Positions 16,880 through 17,760 are shown, counted from the first letter of the stretch. The stretch is DNA of 64,000 nucleotides from Haliangiales bacterium (GCA_038321315.1 JBBQEX010000005.1:36097-100096); one strand, 5' to 3'. A program made the numbers and translations. The notes: generated from the letters alone by a model not told the origin.

Positions 16880-16907
16880 CGCCGCTCGATTGAATTCGGC
16901 ACCCTTC
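16880..16907. repeat. Left copy of a perfect 28-bp inverted repeat (GCCGCTCGATTGAATTCGGCACCCTTCG) flanking the transposase-like gene
   Basis: Its exact reverse complement is at 17733..17760. The flanks are also similar (CGGCGACaaGCG vs CGGCGACggGCG). Confidence 0.6.
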
Positions 16908-17180
16908 GCGGCGACAAGCGAGGCGTGGCGAGATTGTTCGCTGGCCACGTGAGCTCCTGGTCGATCGGCTCGAGTTGTCATCGGGTTCGAGCTCGGCACC
17001 TTCGCGTCGATCGATGCCTCGCTTCGAAACACTCGATACAGGTGTCATGCCGGTATGCCATCATATCGTATGATCACGAAACGATCACCGTAACTCGGAC
17101 TGGGGCTCGACCTCGCGTGGCATCCCACGGGACGCGGTGGTGCGCGACCCGGTGCAGGTCGGCCGCCCAGTCGATCCGGG

Positions 17181-17700
17181 GTGTCTCACGACGAGCGCTC
17201 GGCGTTCTCCGATCGCGAGCCGGTTCACGTAACGGTTCGTGCGACGCAAGGTGTCGTGCTTCGCGCTGATCGGGTCGCACGCGTGATTAAGAGTGCGATC
17301 AGCGACTCGCAGTCATTGTCGTTCTCGATCGTTCATTATTCGATCCAGGACACGCACGCGCACATGATCGTCGAAGCGGCTGATCGCCAGTCCCTGGCAC
17401 GCGGCATGATCGGGCTGACTACGCGAATCGCACGTCGGGTCAACCAAGCGCTACGTGTTGCTCAACGCGCGACACCACACCGACGAGCGCAACGACAAGC
17501 TGCCGGCGACCTGGTCCGATCGCCACTCGAGCGCCCTGACGTTCGATGGCTGGGCCGAGCCGATCGATCAGGAGCACACCTTCGCGTGGCCGGCGCACGA
17601 CCACACCACCGTGACCACACCACGCACCTGGCTCCTCGGCCACTCCTGGAAGCGCCACGGTCCGCCCCGGCTCGACGAAGTCCCGGGTCGGCCAGGCGCT
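17181..17700 (+). mobile_element. IS200/IS605-family or RAYT-like HUH (Y1) transposase relic, frameshifted
   Basis: PVHVTVRATQGVVLRADRVARVIKSAISDSQSLSFSIVHYSIQDTHAHMIVEA carries the HuH motif (HAH) with IS200-like context (compare IS608 DHIHIL). After RRVNQAL the frame becomes Arg-rich. The protein-like sequence continues in frame +1 (KRYVLLNARHHTDERNDKLPATWSDRHSSALTFDGWAEPIDQEHTFAW...LLGHSWKRHG). Confidence 0.5.
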
Positions 17701-17732
17701 CTCCTCCAAGGTCGTGGCCGCGAGGTGACGCG

Positions 17733-17760
17733 ACGAAGGGTGCCGAATTCAATCGAGCGG
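17733..17760. repeat. Right copy (reverse complement) of the 28-bp inverted repeat
   Basis: CGAAGGGTGCCGAATTCAATCGAGCGGC is the exact reverse complement of 16880..16907. Confidence 0.6.

Follow-up and report, generated by a model that had tools for sequence, protein, structure and literature searches.

The window, which is the whole 64,000-nt stretch of DNA analysed here, carries a decayed Y1 HUH transposase gene enclosed by two long arms in inverted orientation, and the arms delimit a unit of ~0.9 kb. The features of the locus are collected in Table 1. In two relatives, L029 and L030, whose lipoproteins share 66% and 56% identity with that of the window, a lipoprotein gene and a gene encoding 252-255 amino acids converge, with an overlap of 8 nt. 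The window orthologues of this convergent pair end at positions 17817 (lipoprotein) and 15999, and the 1.8 kb of extra DNA found between them (15999-17817) consists of a gene for a CarboxypepD_reg-like lipoprotein followed by the element. This block is a lineage-specific insertion, and no repeats bounding it were found. The CarboxypepD_reg-like gene itself (16010-16752), which lies directly to the left of the element, appears to change frame near 16505-16520, and this may represent a second pseudogene or a sequencing error. A gene of the same type is located beside the element of a related locus, L001, but the two are not homologous, and the idea of a shared cargo was rejected. The 64,000-nt window contains neither tRNA or tmRNA genes detectable by ARAGORN nor Rfam families at the gathering threshold, so that the remark in the earlier note on a tRNA-fragment region next to the element is unsupported.

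Table 1. Coordinates of the features at the element locus, counted from the first nucleotide of the window.
Feature	Position	Strand	Basis
Outer left arm	16874..16916	+	exact 30-nt core 16879-16908; five-copy profile match, E 1e-10
Inverted 3' coding fragment	16925..16972	-	blastn against 17556-17609, 74% over 54 columns, E 3e-5
Inner degenerate repeat copy, TTCGAGCTCGGCACCTTCGCGTCGATCG	16983..17010	+	collinear alignment with L003 150-325
Leader motif, TGTCATGCCGGTATGCCATCAT...	17042..17069	+	directly 5' of the start codon; common to L001 and L003 (alignment)
RAYT-like Y1 HUH transposase pseudogene	17070..17694	+	translations, protein and DNA alignments, tblastn, Pfam Y1_Tnp 19.3 bits
Right arm	17726..17768	-	exact core 17734-17763
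Third coding fragment, reads DPIDQKGIFAS	17782..17813	+	84% over 32 nt to 17556-17587

The coding region starts with an ATG, and its homology to related proteins stops at ...EVPGRP. Translation of frame 1 from the start codon yields MITKRSP*LGLGLDLAWHPTGRGGARPGAGRPP...SIVHYSIQDTHAHMIVEAADR...RRVNQ and includes the peptide SIVHYSIQDTHAHMIVEA; after ...RRVNQ the homology shifts to the +1 frame, where it reads RYVLLNARHH...TWLLGHSWKRHGPPRLDEVPGRP. A gene fragment with the HuH motif that loses its frame and continues in +1, as described in the earlier note, is thus present. Two lesions account for the decay. The first is a TAA nonsense codon at codon 8 (17091-17093), where the closely related locus L003 has CAG. 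The second, identified in the DNA alignment to L003, is a single out-of-frame deletion of 83 nt between positions 17443 and 17444, which takes out the RYH/beta-4 region (residues ~126-153) and thereby causes the frameshift. The remaining indels with respect to L003 are all multiples of 3, and the two sequences share 78% DNA identity. The HUH motif, H-A-H, is found at 17355-17363, and the codon of Tyr156 survives at 17452-17454 in the +1 frame, out of frame with the N-terminal half. The window copy is enzymatically dead and would be unable to move by itself. A tblastn search found no second copy of the transposase gene in the 64-kb window, and scans of the locus for sigma-70 promoter and terminator consensus sequences gave no match.

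The repaired translation retrieves 560 homologues of ~240 amino acids; those that bear a name are annotated as 'REP element-mobilizing transposase RayT' or as 'transposase' of Kofleriaceae/Myxococcales MAGs. The nearest homologues are P0001 (66% identity) and P0002 (62%), all others share at most 44% identity, and the clade is apparently of Myxococcota origin. No plasmid-borne relatives of the protein were found. The repaired protein matches the Pfam profile Y1_Tnp (PF01797), but the score of the window ORF, 19.3 bits, stays below the gathering threshold of 23 bits, as do those of six intact homologues (13.6-22.4 bits). The clade is a distant, divergent branch of the Y1 HUH superfamily. The sole match to a transposase family in NCBIfam is the RAYT model NF047646 (REP_Tyr_transpos), which scores 15.1 bits with the window ORF and 22-45 bits with the intact homologues, the cut-off being 80. 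His96, His98 and Tyr156 are invariant across 88 homologues, and the family consensus reads RYVLLNARHH...DPxSSAxWFDGW, with a Tyr motif YVLLNARKH. The clade is further characterised by an extension, GRGGWRPGAGRP, at the N-terminus and by a C-terminal part rich in Trp; HTH and Bac_DnaA_C Pfam domains were not detected in the six intact homologues.

A three-dimensional model of P0001 was generated with AlphaFold2 from 88 aligned homologues (pLDDT 87, pTM 0.79). A search of the PDB with this model using Foldseek revealed as its top match the E. coli TnpA_REP in complex with a REP hairpin (PDB code 4er8; E 1.8e-5, probability 1.00), followed by the TnpAs of ISDra2, IS608, IS200 and Sulfolobus; the TnpA entries that come after 4er8, namely 2xm3, 2vjv, 2f4f and 2ec2, all have probability 1.00. 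Judging from its position on helix 147-167 of the model, Tyr156 of the RYVLLN segment is probably the catalytic nucleophile. Because the fold of the P0001 model is clear and TnpA_REP is its best match, the gene of the window is assigned as a RAYT-like Y1 transposase pseudogene. This agrees with the initial description of an IS200/RAYT-like decayed transposase, and both the NCBIfam match and the top Foldseek match place it nearer to RAYTs than to IS200.

The two arms of the element comprise 43 nt each and are 91% complementary. The 28-mer GCCGCTCGATTGAATTCGGCACCCTTCG, located at 16881-16908 on the plus strand, recurs as its exact reverse complement at 17734-17761. The perfect 28-bp inverted repeat of the earlier note is therefore real, with coordinates one base higher than those first assigned, and the exact run extends to 30 nt. 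None of 100 dinucleotide shuffles reproduced the inverted match of the 28-mer. The motif of the outer left arm that is common to the related loci is CGATTGAATTCGGCACCCTT, which also approximates the core common to all five copies of the repeat described here. Pairing of the left arm with the right arm is predicted to yield a 43-bp stem of -51 kcal/mol (z -13.9).

REPs, which occur in tens to hundreds of copies, are short, imperfectly palindromic sequences that carry a GTAG foot. The initial reading of the locus as a REP or REPIN system implies that the 28-30-mer is a genome-wide repeat spread by a RAYT-like enzyme, and that the locus represents a dead RAYT between inverted REPs. The protein is indeed RAYT-like, RAYT genes have inverted REPs on their flanks (PMC2817692, PMC3116915), and two distant members of the clade have REPIN-like hairpin doublets 5' of the gene. 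The arms themselves, however, are not palindromic. When each arm was folded as single-stranded DNA, on both strands, no self-hairpin was found beyond those of the shuffles (z -0.13 to +1.5); a 7-bp stem is possible in the left arm, and the right arm is devoid of it. The tetranucleotides GTAG and CTAC are absent in or near both arms. There is also no third copy of the 28-mer in the 64-kb window, either exact or with up to 3 mismatches, and the next-best window match to an nhmmer profile built from the five copies (E 0.15) lies inside a coding region.

Two scans of public collections, which do not include the source genome, complement these data. A search for the 19-nt core among GTDB representative genomes, with one genome for each of 185,579 species, returned 3 matches, where ~4 are expected at random in ~1.2e12 positions. 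One of the three was inspected and lies inside an arylsulfatase gene, and a Y1 gene is absent near all of them. A degenerate 19-mer retrieved 16 matches from the JGI metagenomes, none of which continues past the pattern or is accompanied by a Y1 gene. Both sets correspond to chance matches without the gene. With only two copies in 64 kb and no hairpin of its own, the repeat is improbable as a member of a REP or REPIN family.

A comparison with the loci of the two closest intact homologues reveals that the repeat accompanies the gene. In L003, which carries the intact gene of P0001, the motif TTGAATACGGCACCCTTTGC is found in the left orientation 97 nt 5' of the ATG and is 82.8% identical over 29 nt. 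The contig stops 29 nt past the stop codon, and the left side alone is visible. L001, which carries the intact gene of P0002, has two copies in the right orientation. The first (1639-1658; 90% identity over 20 nt) overlaps the last codons and the stop of the gene (...GKGAEFNRTR*), and the second (2031-2052) is 95% identical to the window core over 22 nt and is positioned 3' of an ORF of 93 amino acids; the left motif is absent from L001. The orientation of the motif relative to the gene is the same at the window, L001 and L003. The identity of coding DNA among these loci is only 73-79%, below that of the repeat core. Because the motif flanks the two closest intact homologues in matching orientations relative to the gene, the repeat is regarded as a feature of the element. 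The consistent orientation points to an ancestral element with inverted copies at both ends, and no single intact locus displays both repeats, as L003 has the left one only and L001 the right one only. A comparable flanking inverted repeat is absent at six loci of distant homologues (~40% identity).

Two additional observations were made at these loci. The 93-aa ORF of L001, which is enclosed by the right-type copies (L001:1639-2052), weakly resembles domain 2 of EF-Tu (19.5 bits, a score below threshold), and could be cargo or a duplicated end. A leader motif, TGTCATRCYGRYATGCMATSAT, adjoins the start codon in all three of the close loci (L001:~898-933 and L003:~290-317, in addition to the window). 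A promoter and a binding site are candidate roles for this motif.

The left side of the window element has a composite structure. Next to the outer left arm, the minus strand of 16925-16972 reads ...EPIDQELTWPA, and this fragment is 100% identical over 20 nt to the coding sequence of L003. By tblastn, residues 191-214 of P0001 match the minus strand from 16971 to 16906. The fragment corresponds, in inverted orientation, to the coding sequence at 17556-17609 (EPIDQEHTFAWPA). Since the left arm runs inward into this inverted coding copy, the whole region 16874-16972 repeats part of the right end (17556-17768) in inverted orientation, ~114 nt having been deleted. By position, the inner degenerate motif is homologous to the repeat at the left of L003, in a collinear alignment of the two loci that extends as far as the ATG. 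The sequence GGCAYC(C)TTCGCG occurs 4 times in the 64 kb, with 3 of the occurrences within the locus. Directly beyond the right arm, and immediately ahead of the point where the adjacent lipoprotein gene stops, a third fragment from the same coding segment is found, which was probably left behind by an earlier copy or rearrangement.

This arrangement raises the possibility that the arms have no recognition role at all and arose by an accidental inverted duplication of the 3' end of the gene, or from two head-to-head copies, one of them mostly deleted, with gene conversion keeping the arms identical. The passage of the left arm into an inverted coding fragment, the further coding fragment outside the right arm, and the distant homologues without flanking repeats are all in line with such an origin. 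As the inverted duplication to which the left arm belongs extends into coding sequence, the arm could owe its perfection to duplication and gene conversion instead of function. An accident confined to this locus is nevertheless difficult to reconcile with the 20-22-nt core, of which L003 has one copy 5' of its gene and L001 two copies at or past the end of its gene, in matching orientations, and with its better conservation than that of the coding DNA. Moreover, the core is perfect, whereas the flanks in the same duplication are ~26% diverged: the 30-nt core is intact, the other arm positions are conserved in 11 out of 15 cases, and the coding fragment is 74% identical. At such divergence an intact run of 28-30 nt has p ~2e-4, or ~1e-2 when the choice of position is allowed for, and is suggestive of constraint or gene conversion. 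An accidental duplication is accordingly held to be unlikely.

The boundaries of the unit were also analysed for a target-site duplication, which the earlier note had proposed as a sign of a conventional insertion sequence. Direct repeats of 3-9 bp were sought at 16 symmetric boundary positions and none was found; a conventional DDE-type IS is therefore not favoured. The lack of a target-site duplication is compatible with HUH chemistry and speaks against a DDE-type IS or a MITE, that is, an element with terminal inverted repeats (TIRs) that encloses the Y1 gene as a passenger and was moved by an unrelated transposase. Long terminal inverted repeats are a hallmark of such elements and the size of the unit would be suitable, but a DDE gene is absent, and further copies are missing from the window and from the public collections. 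In addition, the repeat accompanies the Y1 gene at independent loci, and in L001 the two overlap at the stop codon. This explanation is very improbable.

The most satisfactory explanation, to which we assign a probability of roughly 60%, is that the locus represents the dead remnant of a small HUH element in which a RAYT-like Y1 gene is bounded by its own terminal inverted repeats, in the architecture of the TIRtrons and the TIRYTs they encode. The initial alternative to REPs, a small, non-canonical IS whose transposase has decayed, came close to this and is refined here to a TIR-flanked Y1 gene as in TIRtrons (PMC3733652). TIRtrons consist of RAYT-like genes between long inverted repeats of varied sequence that are not REPs (Di Nocera, De Gregorio & Rocco 2013, PMC3733652). 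Their repeats sometimes overlap the 5' or 3' end of the gene, are sometimes arranged as dimers or clusters, and usually do not constitute an abundant family; a GGGGWSAS motif is found in many, although not all, of the published TIRs (PMC3733652). Most TIRYTs are linked to subclass 2.1 (Quentin et al. 2018, PMC6006769).

The window element has a RAYT-like Y1 gene between long inverted repeats unrelated to REPs, which corresponds to the architectural definition of a TIRtron. As in TIRtrons, the repeat can run into the 3' end of the gene, which is the case in L001, and several repeats can be paired or clustered at one locus; the two copies in the 64 kb parallel the low or nil genome copy number of TIRtron repeats. 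Several differences with respect to the published examples are evident. The clade has YVLLNARKH where most published TIRYTs have Y[IV]xLNPVRAG...WSS, as compared by inspection of the published alignment. Its proteins combine the N-terminal extension with the Trp-rich C-terminal part, and the C-terminal HTH typical of subclass 2.1 was not detected. The repeat lacks GGGGWSAS, both in the window arm (AGGGTGCC) and in the L001 copy (GGGGTGCC). Finally, the window copy is a pseudogene, and the six distant clade loci are without a comparable flanking inverted repeat.

Two other groups of Y1 elements are also close. REPtrons are RAYT (TnpA_REP) genes flanked by REP, BIME or REPIN sequences (Nunvar 2010, PMC2817692; Ton-Hoang 2012, PMC3333891; structure 4er8). 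They provide the nearest solved structure and the nearest curated sequence model for the protein of the window, and share with it the inverted flanking repeats and the site between convergent genes. By contrast, the arms of the window are non-palindromic, lack GTAG and are confined to the locus within the 64 kb, and the scores with the NCBIfam RAYT model (15-45 bits) are far under the 80-bit cut-off. In IS200/IS605 elements, hairpins are positioned subterminally on one strand; terminal inverted repeats are lacking, as the earlier note correctly stated. They encode proteins of ~150 amino acids with a Y-x-x-x-Q motif, and are usually present in many identical copies. The HUH/Y1 fold and the absence of a target-site duplication are common to them and the window element, which shows none of the other features and differs in its terminal inverted repeats, the YVLLN Tyr motif, a family size of ~240 amino acids and the single gene copy in the window.

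In a TIRtron-like ancestor, the HUH/Tyr enzyme would have bound the repeat core on single-stranded DNA and would have nicked at or beside it through a 5'-phosphotyrosine intermediate, by analogy with TnpA_REP and the TnpAs of IS608 and ISDra2. With inverted arms, both ends of the element would carry this sequence, one on the top strand and the other on the bottom strand, or the arms could pair as a panhandle. With respect to the present locus, the most economical scenario is that the original left repeat decayed into the inner motif at 16983-17010, and that a further copy of the right end, in inverted orientation, then came to adjoin this decayed repeat. The perfect outer left arm could have resulted when part of the right end was duplicated in inverted orientation, or could be what is left of a second, inverted copy that is otherwise mostly deleted, and the other remnants might correspond to earlier events at the same site. 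The present copy would be mobilisable at best in trans, by an intact paralogue.

A more far-reaching proposal is that an uncharacterised, Myxococcota-centred clade of Y1 enzymes truly recognises and cleaves DNA at the 20-30-nt core, and that units with inverted cores move whole via a single-stranded panhandle. This proposal is tentative and rather doubtful. If true, the clade would comprise a type of HUH transposon with real terminal inverted repeats, and the window copy would be a non-autonomous relic still open to mobilisation in trans.

The TIRtron-like remnant has implications of a more modest kind. As the arrangement is known from other bacteria under the name of TIRtron, the locus is a fairly ordinary genomic relic; the window copy is dead, has no evident effect on the host, and marks an insertion between two convergent genes. 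The decayed TIR-flanked element adds to a published but little-studied kind, and the clade is a divergent one from Myxococcota. HUH/Y1 transposases are known chiefly from hairpin-recognising systems, namely IS200/IS605 and REP-RAYT, and to our knowledge end recognition by their TIR-flanked relatives, the TIRtrons, has never been tested. The locus and its two intact relatives offer a non-palindromic core of ~22 nt, conserved better than the gene, as a defined substrate for biochemistry.

The surroundings of other homologues display repeats of different kinds. An array of six inverted pairs is located 5' of the distant homologue P0111 on a contig of 4.3 Mb (L010:1650-2890). Its arms of ~34 nt, separated by a spacer of ~21 nt, are of two alternating types with a period of ~455 nt, and hold 9-mers close to the DnaA box, TT(A/T)TCCAC; the array looks like REPIN-like hairpin doublets beside a RAYT-like gene. 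Similarly, nested inverted pairs rich in GTCCACA/TGTGGAC and akin to those of L010 are found 5' of another distant homologue, P0016 (L011:2599-2934). Among the four contigs L031-L034, the P0017 homologue is positioned at or near the contig end in three. Its flanks contain short tandem repeats, namely GGGGCACGT units on the upstream side and units resembling CCCTCCGCG on the downstream side, which hints at repeat-rich flanks that break assemblies. Lastly, an identical P0039 protein is encoded on 7 contigs from several samples and sources (L007, L008 and L009 among them), and its neighbours, Peptidase_M32 and Glycolipid_bind, are constant where checked. These constant neighbours indicate a fixed chromosomal locus, as for a domesticated RAYT-like gene and not an active IS.
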